Of a DNA stretch of 64,000 nt, positions 8,808 through 23,032 are shown piece after piece (the stretch's first letter is position 1; each line of letters starts with the position of its first letter). A program made the translations under genes and the position numbers. This stretch comes from Candidatus Poribacteria bacterium (GTDB lineage Bacteria > Poribacteria > WGA-4E > PCPOR2b), in contig OZ244042.1 in NCBI GenBank assembly GCA_965215015.1, forward strand, positions 160,001 through 224,000. The letters are read 5' to 3'. Under the pieces are notes generated by a model, which saw only the letters and a list, made by a program, of their open reading frames with translations, searched no databases and was not told the origin of the DNA.

Positions 8808-10286
8808 CTATTCAACGGCACCGATTTTTGTCGCTTCGGGAGCACGGGTCGGCAGTTTCTTCTTCGCCATTGTATCTTCTGGCACATAACCGGAGTAGTC
8901 AGAAATCGAGCCGTGCGTCAGTGCGTAAACCGCAACATTGGTCATGAAACGATAAACGCCCGGTGAATAATGGACACTACGGGTTGGCAAACTCACTGAC
9001 TCCATCGCACACATATAATCACGACGGAATACTAACACCGAAATATGGTCACCAACCAAAACCCCTTCGAGATAGTTCCGCTTCGGCGGGTGCGTTCCCC
9101 ACCACCACAGATCGAACCCGACTGGCGGGCCGCCCATCTCATAGAAGTTGCTATATATCTCATGGTCATTAGGAATTCGTGTTACCTGATATTCAGGCAT
9201 AACAAAACGCATCTGAGCCAGGAACAGACGAATCATCGCCTGCGCCGGCGCGTTCACCCCACAGTCATCAAAAGCAAGGACGCCGCCCTTTTCGACCAAA
9301 TACCGACGCAACGCTGCCGCTTCGGTTTCAGACAAGCGATTGTCCAATTTACCACCGCCATACTGACGACTCATCAGGTTCTTGGAACGGGTAAGGGCAG
9401 GATCATGACCCGTCATGAAAAGCATAGGAGCTTTATGTAGGTTCGCATCGGTGAACTTGAGCGCCCCACCTTCAACGTTCATGTCTGTTTTAATCTTCGT
9501 CCGTTCATTCATCCACTTTGTCCACGCATTCAGCGAGGAAGCATCAGCCCACCAGTCAGAGAGACTGTGACGGACACGAGTAAACCGGAACACACCGCGA
9601 ATATCGGCACCACGACCGATGACACGACCCCCCGGTTCACCGCGGGGCAGCGGTGGCACTTCTACGTTACCCAAAGTTATGTTTTCGACAACATCACCCA
9701 AGGCGTCACGGGTTGCACCAACATGTTCAACCATAGCAAGCCCAGCCGGACGCTCAAAAGCGACCTTCACCTGCACAATACCGCCAATCCCACGACCAAT
9801 GTTGGCGGGCGCAGCACTTGGGGCGGTTGCCACCGGAGCACTAAACGCCAACGCACCCGGTGCGTCAGAGACGGGCAAGTCGGCATGCGTCACAACTTGC
9901 GGCACTGGAGTGTTGGGACTGACCACTTTAGGTACATTGGGATTGATGGGTGCATCTAGCTTGACCACCTTATTGGAAAATTCCAAAACGGTTTGGGGCT
10001 GCACCGAGGTAGGACGCACGACCGCTGCTGTCGTGACCCTCGGTTGAACTTGAACTTGCTCAACAACCACTGTGTTTGTGGTTGGAACGGTTGGCTTGAC
10101 AATCGGCTTAATCACCGGTTTACGAACTTGTGGTTTCGGGGGTTCTTTTGCCTGCAGGATGTCCGTTCCCACTAAATCTTTGAACTGCTGGGTTTGGGTC
10201 ACGAGATAAACACCTGCGATAAAGAAGGCGACTCCGTGAACAATCACCGATGTCATCAAAGCCCCTGAGGTTTTCTTGGCACTCAT
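8808..10286 (-). CDS. DUF4159 domain protein with membrane anchor and Pro/Val-rich linker
   Basis: N-terminal SVIVHG anchor; C-terminal PMLFMTGH, LRRYLVEKGG.LAFDDC, IP.DHEIY, and NVAVYALTH; start MSAKK with GGAGG RBS. Confidence 0.8.
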   Translation of the reverse strand: MSAKKTSGALMTSVIVHGVAFFIAGVYLVTQTQQFKDLVGTDILQAKEPPKPQVRKPVIKPIVKPTVPTTNTVVVEQVQVQPRVTTAAVVRPTSVQPQTVLEFSNKVVKLDAPINPNVPKVVSPNTPVPQVVTHADLPVSDAPGALAFSAPVATAPSAAPANIGRGIGGIVQVKVAFERPAGLAMVEHVGATRDALGDVVENITLGNVEVPPLPRGEPGGRVIGRGADIRGVFRFTRVRHSLSDWWADASSLNAWTKWMNERTKIKTDMNVEGGALKFTDANLHKAPMLFMTGHDPALTRSKNLMSRQYGGGKLDNRLSETEAAALRRYLVEKGGVLAFDDCGVNAPAQAMIRLFLAQMRFVMPEYQVTRIPNDHEIYSNFYEMGGPPVGFDLWWWGTHPPKRNYLEGVLVGDHISVLVFRRDYMCAMESVSLPTRSVHYSPGVYRFMTNVAVYALTHGSISDYSGYVPEDTMAKKKLPTRAPEATKIGAVE

Positions 10287-10387
10287 GTTTTTCCTCCAAA
10301 AATTATTGTTGTTTGTGTATAAAGATTTAAACAAACTCTCACATCATGCGTAATGCAAAAGTTTGTTGTGATACGTCGTGCAATAGC

Positions 10388-10403
10388 AGCAATTACTGTG
10401 CCA
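10388..10403 (-). promoter_or_regulatory. Sigma54 (-24/-12) promoter for the DUF4159 gene
   Basis: Minus strand reads TGGCACAGTAATTGCT, with GG and GC separated by 10 nt, about 100 bp upstream of the start codon. Confidence 0.8.
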
Positions 10404-10467
10404 TTGCCTTGTAAGTAGGGAAATCCGTAGAAAATGGGGGTTCTCTGTTGTTGGTTAATCAGCCTAA

Positions 10468-10516
10468 TGCACCAAATGGTGTAGATTAAATATTTAGAAT
10501 TGCACCATTTGGTGCA
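10468..10516. promoter_or_regulatory. Tandem NtrC-like enhancer-binding-protein sites
   Basis: TGCACC-aaat-GGTGTA (10468-10483) and TGCACC-attt-GGTGCA (10501-10516), 33 bp apart, upstream of the sigma54 promoter. Confidence 0.7.
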
Positions 10517-10532
10517 ATTTCCTTGTTAATCC

Positions 10533-10570
10533 TTTGACGTACTCCCACGCCCTAAAGGGTTGGGGTCTTG
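10533..10570 (-). mobile_element. Isolated IS200/IS605-type right-end remnant
   Basis: Reverse complement aagaccccaaccctttagggcgtgggagtacgtcaa resembles the end of the tnpB remnant at about 43039-43072 (gaatccaaaccctgtaggtgtaggagtacgtcaa). Confidence 0.55.
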
Positions 10571-10770
10571 TCAACAAGATTAGATAAATGAACGGTGCTC
10601 ATAAAGGAGTAGGCAACTCCGCGTGCCGTAACCTCAACAATCGTTATTACGGACGGGGTTGTTTATGTGAGGGGTGCTCATACGAATTATCTGAATTGCG
10701 GATGCAGCAGATGCCTCAGATTACACGGATATAGATATGGGGTTGGGAATATTTTGTTTTTTTCCATTCA

Positions 10771-11512
10771 GGTTGGAGGGTTAGCCAAGCCATACGCTAT
10801 AGCGAAATAACCCTGTTCGTAGTAGCGCAATTCATTGCGCGTCTCTTCCTATCCATTGAACAACGTTAAAAAAATTAGCCCAATAAGTTGAACCGATTAA
10901 AATCGACTGCAACGATATGGGGTTGGAGGGTTAGCCAAGTCATACGTTATAGCGAAATAACCCCGTTCGTAGTAGCGCAATTCATTGCGCGTCTCTTCCT
11001 ATCCCTTCAACAACGTTAAATAAATTAACCCAATAAGTCGAACCGATTAAAATCAACTGCAACGATATGGGGTTGGGGGTGTTAGCCAAGCCATACGCTA
11101 TAGCAAGATAACCCTGTTTGTAGTAGCGCAATTCATTGCGCGTCTCTTCCTATCCCTTCAACAGCGTTAAATAAATTAACCCAATAAGTCGAAACGATTA
11201 AAATCGACTGCAACGATATGGGGTTGGAGGGTTAGCCAAGCCATACGCTATAGCGAAATAACCCTGTTTGTAGTAGCGCAATTCATTGCGCGTCTCTTCC
11301 TATCCCTTCAACAGCGTTAAATAAATTAACCCAATAAATCAAAACGATTAAAATCAACTGCAACGATATGGGGTTGGAGGGTTAGCCAAGCCATACGCTA
11401 TAGCGAGATAACCCCGTTCGTAGTAGCGCAATTCATTGCGCGTCTCTTCCTATCCCTTCAACAGCGTTAAATAAATTAACCCAATAAATCAAAACGATTA
11501 AAATCGACTGCA
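10771..11512. repeat. Tandem array of five ~150-bp units, each with one GTAG hairpin plus a copy of the last 12 codons of the adjacent gene
   Basis: Units start at 10771, 10921, 11071, 11222 and 11372; the final unit ends inside CDS 11476-12492. Confidence 0.95.
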
Positions 11513-12492
11513 CCGACAACGGGCCTATCCGCGAAAAAATCCTCCAACGCCGCGAGTGTCGTCTCACCGATTTTGGCGTAACCGTAAGCACCCGTTCCAG
11601 AAACATGGGGAGTGACAAAAACATTTGGCAACCCTAAAAATGGGCTATCCGGCGGCAGCGGCTCTGGGGTTGTGACATCAAGTGTGATGAAAATACGATC
11701 GGTCCGCGCTTCAGTCAGCAAGGCCTCATGGTCGATAATACTGCCCCGCGAGGTGTTGACCAGCGTGGCTCCGTCCCGAAGCAGTTTTAGCTGCTCCTCA
11801 CCAATTATCTTATTCGTTTGTGGGATACTTGGCGTGTGAACCGTTACAATATCAGCTGTGGCAAACAAATCGTTGAGCGAAACTCTCTCCACACCAAGAC
11901 TACCCGCCTCCCAATCTGAAAGGTACGGATCGTAGATCAGTTTCCTGACCTCGAAAGACTTCAGGAGCTGAATCACCTGTCGCCCAACTTTGCTCGCTGA
12001 GACTATACCAACAACACTTCCGCGTAAAGAGGGAGCTCTAGAAGCCACCTCACTACGGTTCCACCTCCCCGATCGGGTATGCAAGATAAAGTCAACCCAT
12101 CGGCGGGCGGTCATAATCATTGCGCCAATTGTGTATTCGGCAACATTGTAGGCGATTGCTTCGTTGGCACTAAATACGCAGATCTGGCGCGGCAGAATGT
12201 ATGTATCGAGGACTTCACCGATAAGGCGTTTCACAGAACCCCCTGAATGGGCGATGATTCGGAGGGCGTCCGCGTTAGCCATCACCTTTTCAGTTATTGG
12301 TGACACACCCCAACCGGTGACTACCCCCTCGAACCCAGCAACACGCTCGGCGATTTGGTCGCTTGTATAGCTTGAGCCGGTTTCATTCAGCGTTACATCA
12401 AATTGCTCCTGAAACCGCCTGAAAACTTCTGGAGGGAAAACCTCTTCAGTATGCCCTGATGTGGGCAGGTATAAGATTTTAGGTTTGTTCAT
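11476..12492 (-). CDS. D-isomer-specific 2-hydroxyacid dehydrogenase
   Basis: VGIVSASKVGR dinucleotide-binding motif, LVNTSRGSIID, LDVTTPEPLP, TPHVSG; start at MNKPK after AAGGAG. Confidence 0.9.
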   Translation of the reverse strand: MNKPKILYLPTSGHTEEVFPPEVFRRFQEQFDVTLNETGSSYTSDQIAERVAGFEGVVTGWGVSPITEKVMANADALRIIAHSGGSVKRLIGEVLDTYILPRQICVFSANEAIAYNVAEYTIGAMIMTARRWVDFILHTRSGRWNRSEVASRAPSLRGSVVGIVSASKVGRQVIQLLKSFEVRKLIYDPYLSDWEAGSLGVERVSLNDLFATADIVTVHTPSIPQTNKIIGEEQLKLLRDGATLVNTSRGSIIDHEALLTEARTDRIFITLDVTTPEPLPPDSPFLGLPNVFVTPHVSGTGAYGYAKIGETTLAALEDFFADRPVVGAVDFNRFDLLG

Positions 12493-12527
12493 CGGTGCTC
12501 CTTTCATTGATGTCAGTCATTCTGATG

Positions 12528-14652: not shown

Positions 14653-15380
14653 AGAGTTACGCACTTGAGTGTGTCGTAACGCCATTCAACCCACATTACC
14701 ATAGACCATAAATCGCCCAATAGCAATAGACATACGCTGTATGCCGTACCCCCCTCCCTTCCTCCCGCTTGTGTTCTTACTGCTCATAGTAGCGCAATTC
14801 ATCGCGCGTAAGCTCACCCATCCCTTCCCCCTGCTTGCGGGGGGACAGAGGGGGGTTCTTACTTCTCCTCCGCTTGCGGGGGGGTGTAGATGATTGGCAA
14901 TGTAATAGTATTGCCATGGACTTACTTCCCCCTGCTTGCGGGGGGATAGAGGGGGGTTCTTACTTCTCCTCCGCTTGCGGGATTGTAGATGATTGGCAAT
15001 GTAATAGTATTACCATGGACTTACTTCCCCCTGCTTGCGGGGGGATAGAGGGGGGTTCTTACTTCCCTCCACCTGCTTGCGGGGGGTGTAGATGATTGGT
15101 AATGTAATAGCATTGCCATGGACTTACTTCCCCCTGCTTGCAGGGGGATAGAGGGGGTTCTTACTTCCCCTCCGCTTGCGGGGGGTTGTAGATGATTGGC
15201 AATGTAATAGTATTACCATGGACTTACTTCCCCCTGCTTGCGGGGGGATAGAGGGGGGTTCTTACTTCCCTCTCCCTGCTTGCCGGGGGTTAGGGAGGTG
15301 GCGATTCATCCCCGAAATCCACCATGAACATGGCACCCCCTTTTCTGGTGTTGGCTTTGAACCCTCAACTGCATAAGTCT
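14653..15380. mobile_element. MITE-like segment bounded by short inverted repeats, enclosing repeat arrays
   Basis: AGAGTTACGCA (14653-14663) and TGCATAAGTCT (15370-15380) are imperfect inverted repeats, flanked by ttatttgtta and taatttgtta (10 bp, one mismatch). Confidence 0.5.
14825..15300. repeat. Tandem array of ~100-bp units (4 full plus 1 partial) with CCCCCTGCTTGCGGGGG hairpins and a TGGCAAT-N8-ATTGCCA palindrome
   Basis: Unit starts at 14825, 14926, 15025, 15128 and 15228. Confidence 0.9.
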
Positions 15381-17080: not shown

Positions 17081-17554
17081 AGGCTGGCCTTATACCGACG
17101 AGCGCGAGAACCGCGGCCGGCCCACACACCGATGACAGCAATTTCGATGATGCTTCACGGTTTCCCACCAATGGTAGATTTAACGCTTGACGAAGTTTAT
17201 GGCTCGTGATATATTTTTATCGATTGCCGCCATTGCCGCGCACGCAGAAAGCGAGAAAACCGAATCTCATGGGCTGGGATGCCGGCGTCTCTTTTAAAAG
17301 CACATGCCCTTCAAAGGACTCGATCATAACAGTAGTTTCTAATACGTCAACGGGTGCTTGGGCGATAGATAGTGAAATTATGAAACAGTTGAGGATAGTT
17401 AGCTGGGGGCACTCATAATTATTGTCTGAACCCGGATTTAAGGATTAGTAGGATAACCTTCAACACCTGAACTAATCCACCCATCTACCAAAGACCGATC
17501 AGATTGGGACAACAACATCGGGACTTGGGTCTCCACAGCCAAAGGGATTTTTTG

Positions 17555-20359
17555 ATGACCCACCGCAAGAAACTTATTGAAGTAGACCTGCCGCTAGACG
17601 ACATCAACCGCGAATCCGCCCGTGAGAAGTCCATCCGGCACGGCCATCCCTCCACATTGCATCTATGGTGGGCACGCCGTCCGTTGGCTGCTTGCCGCGC
17701 GGTCATCTTTGCCAGCATGGTGGACGACCCCTCCCACTGCCCCGATGAGTTCCCCACCGACCACGAGCAACGTGCCGAGCGGGAACGACTCCACCATATC
17801 ATCCGTGATCTCGTCAAATGGGAGAGCACCGACGAGAGCCAACTGGATGTAAAAACACTCCTAGCAAACGCACGCTACGAAATTGCCCGCTCGGTGGCGC
17901 GTTCCCGGGGGGAAACCGCACCCACTGACCCTGTTGAAGTGTTGAAATACCTGCACGACCATACGCTGCCGATATATGACCCCTTCGCCGGTGGGGGTTC
18001 TATCCCCCTCGAAGCACAACGGCTTGGACTGAAGTCCGTTGCTTCAGACCTCAATCCGGTGGCAGTCCTCATCAACAAGGCGTTGATTGAGATACCGCCC
18101 AAGTTTCAGCATCTGCCTCCGGTCAATCCCGAAGCGGACACCCTCGGCATATCTACGGGCAGAGGCAGAAACGCGCGGCGCATCCCCTGGCGCGGTGCGT
18201 CCGGCCTTGCAGACGACATCCGCTACTACGGGGCATGGATGCGTGAGGAGGCGTTTAAGCGGATTGGGCATCTTTACCCGAAGGTGAAACTGGCTGATGG
18301 CAGCGATGCGACTGTGATTGCATGGCTCTGGGCGCGGACGGTCCCCTGTCCCAATCCCGCCTGCGGTGTCGAGCTGCCCCTTCTGAAAACCTTCCAACTC
18401 TCGAAAAAGAGCAACAACGAACACTGGATTAGGCCTGTTGTTGACTATGAGTCGAAGCGGGTATCCTTTGTCGTGCAGGGCCACAGTGGTGGCGTCCCCG
18501 AAGGTGGGACGGTGAACCGCCACGGTGCCGTCTGTATCGCCTGCAACAGCGCGGCTCCGTTGTCTTATGTCCGTGAGCAGGCGAGGGTTGGCAACATGAG
18601 CGAGCAGATGACTGCCATCGTCGCTGAGGGGGATCGCAGGCGGCTCTATGTGTCACCGTCCGACGAACATATCAAGGCCGCAATATCTGCCGAACCTATT
18701 TGGAGGCCAACGCAACCAATAACAAGAACACCAAAAGTCAGTGCGTTGACTTATGGTGCTACCCATTGGCATCAACTTTTCACTGAGCGTCAACTCACTG
18801 CGCTGACCACGTTCAGCGACCTGCTAGAGGAGGTTGACGAATTAGTAACAAAACACGGGGCTGATGAGAAGTACACCAACGCTCTCCGAACCTATCTTAC
18901 TCTCGCAATTGGTAGAGAAGCAGACATGTGCTCTAGTTTTGACAGATGGCACAACTCCGTAGAAGCAGTCACCGGAGTTTTTGGGCGTCAGGCAATTCCG
19001 ATGATTTGGGATTACGTCGAATCCAATCCCTTCTCCAATTCAACGGGAAATTGGATGGCACATATTAAGTGGATTGCAAAGGTTGTCGAGCGATTGCCCG
19101 CAGCTGCGAACAGCGGTGCCGTGCATCAGGCGGATGCCTCCACCACTATCCACGCCCAAGATGGGCCGGTCATCGTCACCGACCCGCCCTACTACAACAA
19201 CATCGACTATGCCGATCTGTCCGATTTCTTCTACGTGTGGCTGCGTCCCCTACTCCGCGATGTTTACCCGGACCTGTTCGCCGGTATTCTGACCCCCAAA
19301 GCTGAGGAGATAACTGCAATCCCCGCCCGATTTGATGATCCCCGGCAGCGATTTGAGGACTTGCTGAACAAAACACTTCAGTTAATACGAGAGCGATGCA
19401 GCCCGGAGTTCCCGTCCTCCATCTTCTACGCCTACAAACAGCAGGAGGAGGAGCGGGATGGTAGAACGTCCACCGGCTGGGAAACGATGCTGAGTGCTAT
19501 CATATCGGCGGGTTTCGAGATAGTCGGCACCTGGCCCATGCGTACTGAATACGCTTTACGATCCAATGTCCAAAGTGGCACCAATGCACTAGCATCGTCT
19601 GTAGTACTGGTCTGTCGCCCCCGTCCCCGTGATGCCTCCGCCGCAACGCGCCGTCAATTTTTCAACGCACTTGACAAAGAACTGCCTGCAGCACTCGACC
19701 AACTGACGCGAGAAGGGCACATCGCACCGACGGATCTGGCGCAAGCCGCTATCGGTCCGGGGATGCAGATTTACTCCCGTTACAGCGGTGTGGAGACTAT
19801 CAGCGGCAAGGCGGTGTCGGTGCGGGAGGCGTTGGCAGCAATCAACCGCGCTATCGCGGATTACGACGAGCGTCAGGAGGGGGATCTGGATTTGGAGAGC
19901 CGGTTCTGTCTCGCCTGGCTCAAGCAGCATGGGTATGCGGAGGGCCCCTACGGTGACGCGGAGACGCTGGCACGCGCCAAGAATGTCACCATCAGGGGGT
20001 TGCAGGACTCTAACGGTCTGCTCACCGCCAAAGGGGGGTGGGTCAAGCTACTGCCGCTCGATGCGTTTTCTGAAAGCGAGGAGTTGCCCCTCGACGCCAC
20101 GACAGCGTGGGCGGGTTGTTTCCGGATGGCATACCACCTGAACCGTGAGGATGGCAGGGGTGTTGAAGGCGCAGCGCATGTCGGCAGGGAGATGAGGGGT
20201 GCTGTTGAATCTATCGAGCGGTTGGCACGCGTTCTCTACAACTACTATGACCGCGCGGGGGATTCCCAGAACGCTGTTATTTTCAATAACCTTGTCACGG
20301 AGTGGGAACAGATTCAGAAGCAGATGACAGCGGACAGACAGATCGACATGCCGATTTAA
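17555..20359 (+). CDS. DUF1156 adenine-specific DNA methyltransferase with Zn ribbon
   Basis: KLIEVDLPL, LHLWWARRPLAACRA, DPFAGGGSIPLEA (motif I), CPNPAC..CIAC, TDPPYY (motif IV). Confidence 0.92.
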   Translation: MTHRKKLIEVDLPLDDINRESAREKSIRHGHPSTLHLWWARRPLAACRAVIFASMVDDPSHCPDEFPTDHEQRAERERLHHIIRDLVKWESTDESQLDVKTLLANARYEIARSVARSRGETAPTDPVEVLKYLHDHTLPIYDPFAGGGSIPLEAQRLGLKSVASDLNPVAVLINKALIEIPPKFQHLPPVNPEADTLGISTGRGRNARRIPWRGASGLADDIRYYGAWMREEAFKRIGHLYPKVKLADGSDATVIAWLWARTVPCPNPACGVELPLLKTFQLSKKSNNEHWIRPVVDYESKRVSFVVQGHSGGVPEGGTVNRHGAVCIACNSAAPLSYVREQARVGNMSEQMTAIVAEGDRRRLYVSPSDEHIKAAISAEPIWRPTQPITRTPKVSALTYGATHWHQLFTERQLTALTTFSDLLEEVDELVTKHGADEKYTNALRTYLTLAIGREADMCSSFDRWHNSVEAVTGVFGRQAIPMIWDYVESNPFSNSTGNWMAHIKWIAKVVERLPAAANSGAVHQADASTTIHAQDGPVIVTDPPYYNNIDYADLSDFFYVWLRPLLRDVYPDLFAGILTPKAEEITAIPARFDDPRQRFEDLLNKTLQLIRERCSPEFPSSIFYAYKQQEEERDGRTSTGWETMLSAIISAGFEIVGTWPMRTEYALRSNVQSGTNALASSVVLVCRPRPRDASAATRRQFFNALDKELPAALDQLTREGHIAPTDLAQAAIGPGMQIYSRYSGVETISGKAVSVREALAAINRAIADYDERQEGDLDLESRFCLAWLKQHGYAEGPYGDAETLARAKNVTIRGLQDSNGLLTAKGGWVKLLPLDAFSESEELPLDATTAWAGCFRMAYHLNREDGRGVEGAAHVGREMRGAVESIERLARVLYNYYDRAGDSQNAVIFNNLVTEWEQIQKQMTADRQIDMPI

Positions 20360-22455: not shown

Positions 22456-23032
22456 GGATATACAATAACCCGTTTGTAGTAGGGCAATTCATTGCCCGTA
22501 GGGGTTCTTGTAATAGGGACATACAATTAAGATGAGCGAGGGTAACTCAGCGACAGGCAGTTAGACCAACACCCGTTTGTAGTAGCGCAATTTATTGCCC
22601 GTAGGGGGTCTTGTAATTCGGCAACATGTGGTTATCCCAAAACACCAATATAGTGGAAACCCAAAACACACACCCGTTTGTAGTAGGGCAATTCATTGCC
22701 CGTAGGGGGTCTTGTAATAGGGATATACAATTAAGATGAGCGAGGGTAACTCAGCGACATGCAGTTATACCAACACCCGTTTGTAGTAGCGCAATTCATT
22801 GCGCGTCGAGGTTCTTGTAATTCGGCAACATGTGGTTATCCCAAAACACCAATATGGCGGAAACCCAAAACACAGGTTGAACAAGGCAGGCACACCTAAG
22901 GGATATACAATTAAGATGAGCGAGGGTAACTCAGCGACAGGCAGTTAGACCAACACCCGTTTGTAGTAGCGCAATTCATTGCCCGTAGGGGTTATTGTAA
23001 TTTGGCAACATGTGGTTATCCCAACACACCAA
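22409..23032. repeat. BIME-like mosaic array with five GTAG hairpins and copies of the upstream gene's 3' end
   Basis: GTAG hairpins at about 22476, 22579, 22680, 22783 and 22963; tatggcggaaacccaaaacacaggttgaa repeated at 22409 and 22853. Confidence 0.9.

Follow-up and report, generated by a model that had tools for sequence, protein, structure and literature searches.

A tandem array of REP-like hairpins and spare dehydrogenase gene ends in a Candidatus Poribacteria genome

Results

Layout of the locus

The locus was analysed within a window of 64,000 nucleotides, the whole stretch of DNA under study, taken from the metagenome-assembled genome (MAG) of a Candidatus Poribacteria member, an uncultured sponge bacterium. 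The genome forms one 5.94-Mb contig and its close relatives are MAGs labelled Candidatus Poribacteria. All positions given here are those of the window. A tandem array sits between two co-directional, minus-strand genes, encoding a dehydrogenase and a DUF4159 protein, and the features of the locus are as follows.

11476..12507, minus strand: D-isomer-specific 2-hydroxyacid dehydrogenase gene, 343 aa (ORF list; Pfam PF02826, 2-Hacid_dh_C, 1.2e-45; PF00389, 6e-6)
11367..11516, minus strand: unit u1, the live unit, holding the gene end, some 22 nt of the ancestral 3' flank, the REP hairpin and a fragment of a dispersed repeat (alignments, codon table)
11217..11366, minus strand: unit u2, dead copy, differing from u1 at 5 of 146 compared columns, in its coding part only by GTT, plus the junction GTT (alignment, codon table)
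11066..11216, minus strand: unit u3, dead copy, 151 nt with a 1-nt insertion, coding part TTC GAC (alignment, codon table)
10916..11065, minus strand: unit u4, dead copy, coding part GTT, CGG, TTC, GAC (alignment, codon table)
10766..10915, minus strand: unit u5, distal dead copy, coding part CGG, TTC, AAC (Asn), GGC, its far end entering undeleted flank (alignment, codon table)
11416..11443, minus strand: REP core in u1, palindromic and GTAG-tagged, 6-bp stem and 4-nt loop (BLAST against own genome, fold)
11266-11293, 11116-11143, 10965-10992 and 10815-10842, minus strand: REP core in the other units, same core as in u1
10741..10776, no strand: two GGTTGG hexamers, 30 nt apart, at 10741 and 10771 (sequence read directly, unit alignment)
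10668..10742, no strand: dispersed repeat X, dozens of partial copies listed, 73-91% identity (BLAST against own genome)
10594..10647, no strand: dispersed repeat Y, about 18 copies listed, 78-89% identity (BLAST against own genome)
10454..10530, no strand: ancestral downstream hairpin pair, TTGCACCAAATGGTGCAA type (sequence past the gene at orthologous loci; relatives match at query 1468-1696)
8808..10334, minus strand: next downstream gene, DUF4159 protein, 508 aa (ORF list; Pfam)

Five units of 150 or 151 bp lie head-to-tail at 10766-11516. TRF reported the array at 10771-11516 with a period of 150, 5.0 copies, 94% matches, 0% indels and a score of 1301, and gave an alternative period of 301, equal to two units, a slightly higher score of 1322; an array of this kind is far beyond chance. 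An initial annotation, made from the letters alone, had described units of about 150 bp that each hold the end of the dehydrogenase gene, and this was borne out by TRF and the alignments. The homology proved about 5 nt longer than described, extending over 41 nt, or 13 codons and the stop. In the live gene the last 13 codons and stop fall within u1 and read GTC GGT GCA GTC GAT TTT AAT CGT TTT GAT TTA TTG GGT TAA. From the gene side, each unit thus comprises the final 13 codons with the stop, some 22 nt of ancestral flank, a GTAG-tagged palindrome, which on the plus strand is GTAGTAGCGCAATTCATTGCGC and is present in every unit, and a piece of another dispersed repeat. The sequence after the stop, TAATTTATTTAACGCTGTT, matches the 3' flank of the closest orthologue (locus L001), TAATTCTTCCCAACGCTGTT.

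All four junctions between units are identical. At the founder junction the flank ...CCCATATC meets the gene sequence G(G/T)TGCAG, with only TC common to both, and the joint lies 53 nt away from the REP and not at it. The GTC GGT of the live gene is replaced by ATC GTT in each of the four dead copies; the G to T change (GGT to GTT) is common to u2-u5 and was found neither in the live copy nor in any of 25 tabulated orthologues, all of which have GGN. The dead units therefore go back to one dead founder, or were homogenised with it or among themselves.

The 30 nt between the GGTTGG hexamers are kept after u5 and absent at the u1-u4 junctions, and the founder unit would therefore have measured about 180 nt, the 30 nt having probably been lost before amplification. 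Repeats X and Y fall in the interval that separates the array from the ancestral hairpins downstream of it (10454-10530), X being part of a genome-specific insertion that separates the gene from its ancestral 3' flank. The hairpin pair, which stands about 35-125 nt past the stop in the relatives' loci shown, is here about 950 nt away and includes a terminator-like site at 10497-10520. No terminator-like sites were found in the units and no Rfam matches in the array, the only Rfam matches being to miRNA models at 10454-10530 (E 0.14-0.5), far below thresholds.

Compared over the last 33-36 nt, the copies at 11326, 11176, 11025 and 10875 (minus strand) differ from the live end at 1, 2, 4 and 5 positions, and the codon table confirmed, for the coding part, the increase with distance reported earlier. 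The variable coding sites, exactly as claimed, are six in number (GTC/GTT, CGT/CGG, TTT/TTC, GAT/GAC, GGT/GGC and GAC/AAC), of which five are synonymous third positions and the sixth changes Asp to Asn, an allele present in 3 of the 25 orthologues. When whole units were aligned, 23 of 151 columns were variable, including 12 non-coding columns and 4 boundary columns of u5.

Ancestry and distribution of the gene-end copies

Orthologues of the dehydrogenase in Poribacteria genomes are 90-94% identical, and the C-terminus AVDFNRFDL[LI]G, followed by the stop, is kept among them and recognisable beyond them; the copies therefore derive from the gene and not the gene end from a repeat. Orthologue ends and the flank of locus L001 show that the gene end and about 22 nt past the stop are ancestral. 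Across same-genus genomes the gene-end match ends just past the stop, at query 509-541, in 18 of 18, and in the 17 genomes with a listed second match some 6-600 bp at most separate this end from the ancestral flank (query about 1468-1696). Since the gene match ends at the stop and the ancestral flank comes soon after it in these relatives, the approximately 940 bp at 10534-11474 are lineage-specific relative to the 18 genomes, in which the gene-end/junction part of the units was unmatched among the matches listed.

A second copy of the gene's own tail (at most 8 mismatches of 36) was found in none of 33 related loci, in the DNA available for them, and the closest species, at 92% nucleotide identity, is without the array. 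The junction word had no matches in other genome contigs, and a degenerate junction word had none in metagenome contigs. A search of metagenome contigs for close strains gave 34 loci, the best at 75% protein identity and none useful. The array was thus found only in the source genome and in one related strain present in public sequencing runs. Full-text literature searches that combined Poribacteria with REP, or with tandem repeats and restriction-modification, found no such array described for the phylum.

Comparison with the orthologues also bears on the relative age of the copies. TTC is the state of 22 of the 25 orthologues and is kept in u3-u5, and TTT, the derived state, is found in the live end and in u2; judged by this codon, the distal copies are fossils that retain the older TTC state. 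It had been proposed that the copies are earlier gene ends and that distal ones would match ancestral alleles in related strains. The ancestral C-terminus and the older TTC agree with this, but the GTT junction matched none of the 25 orthologues, and, being common to the dead copies, leaves the further idea that each copy in turn had been the functional end unsupported.

Order of the units

The initial annotation had gone on to read the array as a chronological record of alleles, in which every unit served in its time as the functional end until a new gene-proximal copy displaced it distally, such that u5 to u1 would form a time series filtered by selection. In the 37 nt of coding sequence the difference between units does rise with distance, as such a record predicts (Mantel r 0.79; 4 of 120 permutations do as well, the minimum possible being 2), but no distance gradient was found in the 105 nt of non-coding sequence with its 12 variable columns (Mantel r -0.05; 64 of 120 permutations reach it).

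Whole-unit distances (5; 7-8; 8-11; 9-12) fit a ladder-shaped tree in physical order, which is also what proximal growth would give. Half of the parsimony-informative sites (4/8) are homoplasious, conflicting with the best tree, which takes 12 steps against a minimum of 8, and the units are therefore mosaic. Two sites alternate with a two-unit period, a periodicity that TRF also finds. The units are best read as mosaics in which proximal copies hold some changes of the live lineage, without chronology.

The array shows several attributes of a VNTR-like locus, namely high-identity head-to-tail units, one common junction, and mosaicism with concerted evolution. Two attributes expected of an archive were lacking, in that whole units are not age-ordered outwards and the live end was not the independent source of each copy. 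Some older states do survive in the spare copies, and in this weak sense alone can one speak of an archive.

Codon positions of the variable sites

The preference for third positions had been offered as evidence that the copies were once coding, with a binomial probability of about 0.02. Recalculation for 5/6 against a null of 1/3 gave 13/729 = 0.018, and inclusion of the junction site (5/7) gave P 0.045. Against the unit's own background, with 5 of 18 variable sites falling on the 12 third-position columns among 146, the hypergeometric P was 0.0075, and pure neutral decay does not predict such an enrichment. A null of about 45%, a rough estimate in which the live lineage adds synonymous changes and the dead lineage unbiased ones, gave P 0.069. 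Divergence of the live lineage fits the third-position pattern only when conversion from the live end is added. With six sites the excess is nominal (P 0.007-0.07 by null model) and too weak to carry the archive inference.

Repetition of the third-position test on other gene-end arrays of the genome had been set beforehand as a check. ORFs of at least 150 aa were scanned for a copy of their last 33 nt (at most 6 mismatches) within 1.5 kb downstream, which returned 66 ORFs, including tandem paralogues and CRISPR artefacts, and inspection by eye left 17 other loci at which a genuine gene has non-genic copies. Closest in kind to the present array are four other multi-copy gene-end arrays, which lie behind Eco57I-type (type IIG) restriction-modification genes. 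They had 18, 19 and 22 variable columns at first, second and third codon positions, and thus no bias (22/59 third, P 0.30), which speaks against codon bias as evidence for an archive. The 13 single- or double-copy loci had 44 of 77 at third positions, and several of them probably represent the ends of paralogues that are live or were so recently. Pooling of the 17 loci, with these probable live paralogues included, gave 66/136, which fits the 45% null (P 0.23).

All six variable sites of the coding part also vary among the dead copies u2-u5. The excess probably reflects in part a synonymous change of the live lineage (TTC to TTT) spread proximally by recombination, and the remainder may be chance. 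Three of the six sites fall in two TCGA words; CpG/TCGA hypermutation was considered as a cause of the third-position changes and rejected, the genome having observed/expected ratios of 1.05 for CpG and 1.04 for TCGA. A crude and noisy count over 34 indel-free arrays, some of them likely misregistered, gave a variability of 0.257 at CpG and 0.249 at other sites.

A second strain in public sequencing runs

Contigs of four public runs (X1, X2, X4 and X5) were placed on window positions 10300-12000. Those from X4 and X5, two runs of one study that may represent the source sample, showed no difference from the window at both flanks or at several junctions and stretches specific to single units. 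Runs X1 and X2, from another study, contain a strain differing at 9 of about 520 gene positions. A 689-nt contig of X1 leads from the same distal flank through a u4-like full unit and a junction into part of the next unit. The array, being present in both strains, is therefore older than their split.

In the second strain the live end (X1, X2) carries GGG, where the source genome has GGT in its live end and in u2-u4. The distal dead copy of the second strain (X1) likewise has GGG, together with CGT where u4 has CGG, and keeps TTC, and an X2 contig placed on u3 reads CGG TTT. The presence of GGG in both live and dead copies of this strain indicates that the copies have been overwritten, that is, concerted evolution; a glycine codon that is strain-specific in live and dead copies alike tells against alleles frozen in an archive. 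All changes in the coding copies of the second strain fall at sites already variable in the source genome, the copies being recombinants with no new sites. At one junction it reads ATT GGT in place of the ATC GTT of the source genome, and the original junction would therefore have been ...ATATC joined to GGTGCAG. Joints at the REP with short sides of 27-29 nt were also seen among the run contigs and probably come from other REP loci.

The REP hairpin across the genome

The arms of the palindrome, GCGCAAT/ATTGCGC, fold at -6.3 kcal/mol (z -2.0), in keeping with a short (20-40 bp) stem-loop palindrome. BLAST of the REP core against its own genome gave dozens of 28-32-nt matches at 93-100% identity, and GTAG stood at most 10 nt away in 202 of 250 core matches genome-wide, so that both the GTAG tag and the high copy number of such elements are present. 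Tandem arrays (period 40 or more) contain 98 of the 202 tagged REPs and cover 86 kb of the 5.94 Mb; at least two of these hairpins occur at 24 of 154 array loci, with periods of 54 to 303 bp. The boundaries of 16 of the 24 REP arrays were delimited, the 8 without an indel-free TRF row being left out, and in these 16 the copy numbers are mostly non-integer and the boundaries have no common motif. When the region itself was compared with the rest of the genome by BLAST, the REP and repeat parts recurred and the gene-end part never did.

A RAYT gene was sought through Y1_Tnp (PF01797), for which the genome has two matches, at 65 and 55 bits, one of them interrupted by an internal stop; all tagged REPs are more than 3 kb away from both. 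The initial annotation had linked the duplication to hairpins. A REP in every unit, together with the frequency of REPs inside tandem arrays, accords with that link.

Discussion

The locus is a REP cluster whose reiterated flank happens to extend into a gene, and it arose, in our judgement probably, by lineage-specific tandem reiteration of a REP-like hairpin and flanking DNA that was later reshuffled. The anatomy of the array, the ancestry of its gene ends, its lineage specificity, mosaic structure and concerted change were observed directly; we infer the order of events, a molecular mechanism of hairpin-promoted slippage or unequal recombination, and the source of the codon pattern. In the proposed course, a GTAG-tagged REP and elements X, Y and Z would have been inserted directly behind the dehydrogenase gene. 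One illegitimate duplication at a 2-nt microhomology (TC), with one end 13 codons ahead of the stop and the other inside the inserted repeats, would then have created a second, dead gene end. A 30-nt slip deletion would have reduced the unit to 150 nt, and unequal crossing-over or replication slippage between units would have raised their number to five. Later divergence of the units would be due to point mutation, and their reshuffling to unequal crossover and short tracts of gene conversion, in which the live unit would also have taken part. An unequal crossover of u1 with u2 would leave a chimeric unit whose 5' part comes from an old dead copy, and the live allele would be copied only by crossovers or conversion tracts within the first few tens of bases. 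The hairpin is a putative starter or driver of the duplication, the junction lying well away from the REP. The dead gene ends are thus decaying, recombining and partly overwritten fossils and form no ordered allele record.

An alternative would be that REP hairpins behind stops drive gene-proximal growth of arrays, each event depositing the current live allele of the last codons, which we consider unlikely. If true, such arrays would be partial readable records of the gene's recent synonymous history and a reservoir for swapping gene ends back.

The full archive, with every unit once functional and the units in order of age, seems quite unlikely. The graded coding differences, the concentration at third positions, the ancestral TTC of the distal copies and a sole amino-acid change that is an allele of some orthologues are all consistent with it, and an unequal crossover of u1 and u2 in the first 20-30 nt would give the observed pattern. 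It is, however, at odds with the dead-copy junction that neither live copy nor orthologue has, with the ungraded non-coding sequence, with homoplasy at half of the informative sites, with overwriting in the second strain and with the unbiased restriction-modification arrays; and 3-4 synonymous substitutions in 12 live codons would exceed what is expected for so young an array. Chronological ordering by gene-proximal displacement was thus not upheld.

A mobile hairpin cassette, made of a REP and a spare gene end and inserting repeatedly at one site in the last codons, could be envisaged from the T-R-T-C that both breakpoints follow (after TGTC and before G in the gene, after TATC and before T in the flank) and from the Y1_Tnp matches. 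It is very unlikely: the junction word has 0 matches elsewhere in genome and metagenome contigs, the gene-end part is unique in its own genome, the unit includes ancestral 3' flank common to orthologues, the 16 other REP arrays lack a common boundary motif and integer copy numbers, and the Y1_Tnp matches stand apart from REPs and include a broken one. The junction with TC only, remote from the hairpin, and the motif-free boundaries fit illegitimate duplication followed by slippage or unequal recombination, and not a site-specific cassette.

An assembly artefact, in which strain variants of one unit were concatenated, is highly improbable, although the genome is a MAG. In none of the runs examined does a single contig cross the array from end to end, X5, X1 and X2 leave parts of it uncovered, and the copy number and unit order given here are those of the assembly; in X4, moreover, unit-specific contigs have a depth of 113-202 against 243-409 for the flanks. 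On the other side, X4 and X5 each provide contigs with 0 differences across unit-specific variants and junctions, the 689-nt contig of X1 from an independent study joins distal flank, full unit, junction and part of the next unit, and the single 5.94-Mb contig suggests reads longer than 750 bp.

That the spare ends are functional and under selection, as 22-codon mini-ORFs (ATG ... IVAVDFNRFDLLG and stop), terminators or an RNA element, is scarcely credible, since the 150-nt period that keeps frame, the in-frame ATG seen by eye 22 codons before each stop and the third-position excess are countered by the 1-nt insertion within the mini-ORF of u3, by a GCT to ACT change, at the first codon position, in the second codon of the u4 mini-ORF and by a whole-unit fold that does not stand out from shuffled sequences (z -0.9). 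The frameshift in u3 was the ground for rejecting translated mini-ORFs in the dead units.

Comparison with known systems places the array among repeat clusters. Integrative elements at tRNA/tmRNA genes leave duplicated gene 3' ends (attL/attR), which can preserve an older or foreign allele. The present locus resembles these in having a spare gene 3' end downstream of an intact gene, but has no integrase and no element body, five tandem copies, and a junction that is illegitimate and not site-specific. As in the template and variable repeats of diversity-generating retroelements (DGRs), a near-identical copy of a gene 3' end lies directly downstream; here, however, only 41 nt are common and the copy has A against the live base at 1 of 6 sites. 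A DGR was rejected, the differences (C/T, T/G, T/C, G/A, T/C, T/C) not being adenine-specific, as was a CRISPR, the units being alike over their full length without spacers.

Tandem reiteration of REPs with flanking DNA, in GTAG-tagged REP clusters or BIME-like arrays, is already described in the account of Di Nocera et al. 2013 (PMC3733652). The elements treated there share with ours the short GTAG-tagged palindrome, high copy number and a position downstream of coding regions and between co-directional genes. Unlike the clusters described in that account, the reiterated flank here extends 41 nt into a coding region and each unit carries a spare gene end; the host is moreover a Poribacteria MAG, in which no RAYT gene flanked by these REPs was found. 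Head-to-tail REP/SMAG clusters of Stenotrophomonas are presented as VNTR markers whose unit number differs between strains (PMC2613905), and the present units are likewise head-to-tail at a specific locus. Compared with the copy-number variation reported in that source, differences between strains are known here from sequence only, in the second strain.

On its own the locus is ordinary and represents the usual kind of repeat amplification. It is nevertheless a clean, well-delimited example, from a phylum of sponge symbionts that has received little study, of hairpin repeats that amplify along with adjacent DNA, in which the founder junction, the later 30-nt deletion and exchange with the live gene can be read from the DNA. 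A coding-like pattern in spare gene ends needs no archive mechanism, as synonymous change in the live gene and recombination between copies can give it. Similar arrays behind the four type IIG restriction-modification genes of the same genome suggest that the process is a general one.

Gene-end copies and other repeats in the genome

Copies of gene ends were found to cluster at defence and mobile genes in this genome (G000), where the following cases were recorded.

G000 3795900-3801000, 3803400-3808300, 5413000-5418200 and 3333200-3338300: Eco57I-type (type IIG) restriction-modification genes with arrays (loci L080-L083)
Window 17504-20359, + strand: DUF1156 gene, one gene-end copy downstream at +259
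G000 5175041-5178166, 2412209-2413327 and 5296521-5297807: type ISP restriction enzyme gene with one downstream gene-end copy at +188, and two YhgA/Rpn-like Transposase_31 genes with single gene-end copies at +345 and +1003

Each of the four Eco57I-type genes (1168-1205 aa) was followed by arrays of ~154-bp units, in which the final 18-23 codons of the gene (..LYGLTPEEIAIVE..ENV*) were joined to a dispersed repeat, TGTCTGAATCAGGAT.., which was not the same repeat as that in the dehydrogenase-gene array. This repeat was present in 270 copies genome-wide, 22 of them with the tail peptide. Many of the spare gene ends had amino-acid changes, and stops were present in some.

Further repeats were located in the window and, from the genome-wide TRF list, elsewhere in the genome.

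Window 14824-15290: tandem array upstream of the EF-G gene, period 99/203, based on a CCCCCTGCTTGCGGGGGG hairpin
Window 22468-22874: tandem array, period 103/204, including the GTAG-tagged palindromic hairpin (REP) of the dehydrogenase-gene array
Window 10454-10530: pair of TTGCACCAAATGGTGCAA-type inverted repeats behind the dehydrogenase gene
G000 1173188-1186869, 1347739-1351040 and 3452595-3455158: three long CRISPR-like arrays, periods 66-74 bp

The TTGCACCAAATGGTGCAA-type pair was kept behind the dehydrogenase gene in most orthologous Poribacteria loci, and may be an ancestral terminator or regulatory hairpin.

An internal fragment of the dehydrogenase gene was also found elsewhere in the genome.

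G000 2165696-2166047: 182-bp fragment matching window 11570-11750, 95% identical

Lying in another intergenic region, this fragment adjoined a copy of the GTAG-tagged REP and a copy of repeat X, the dispersed repeat at window 10668-10742, and it was also present as a separate contig in the public sequencing runs examined at the locus. Gene fragments appear to move together with these small repeats, REP and repeat X.
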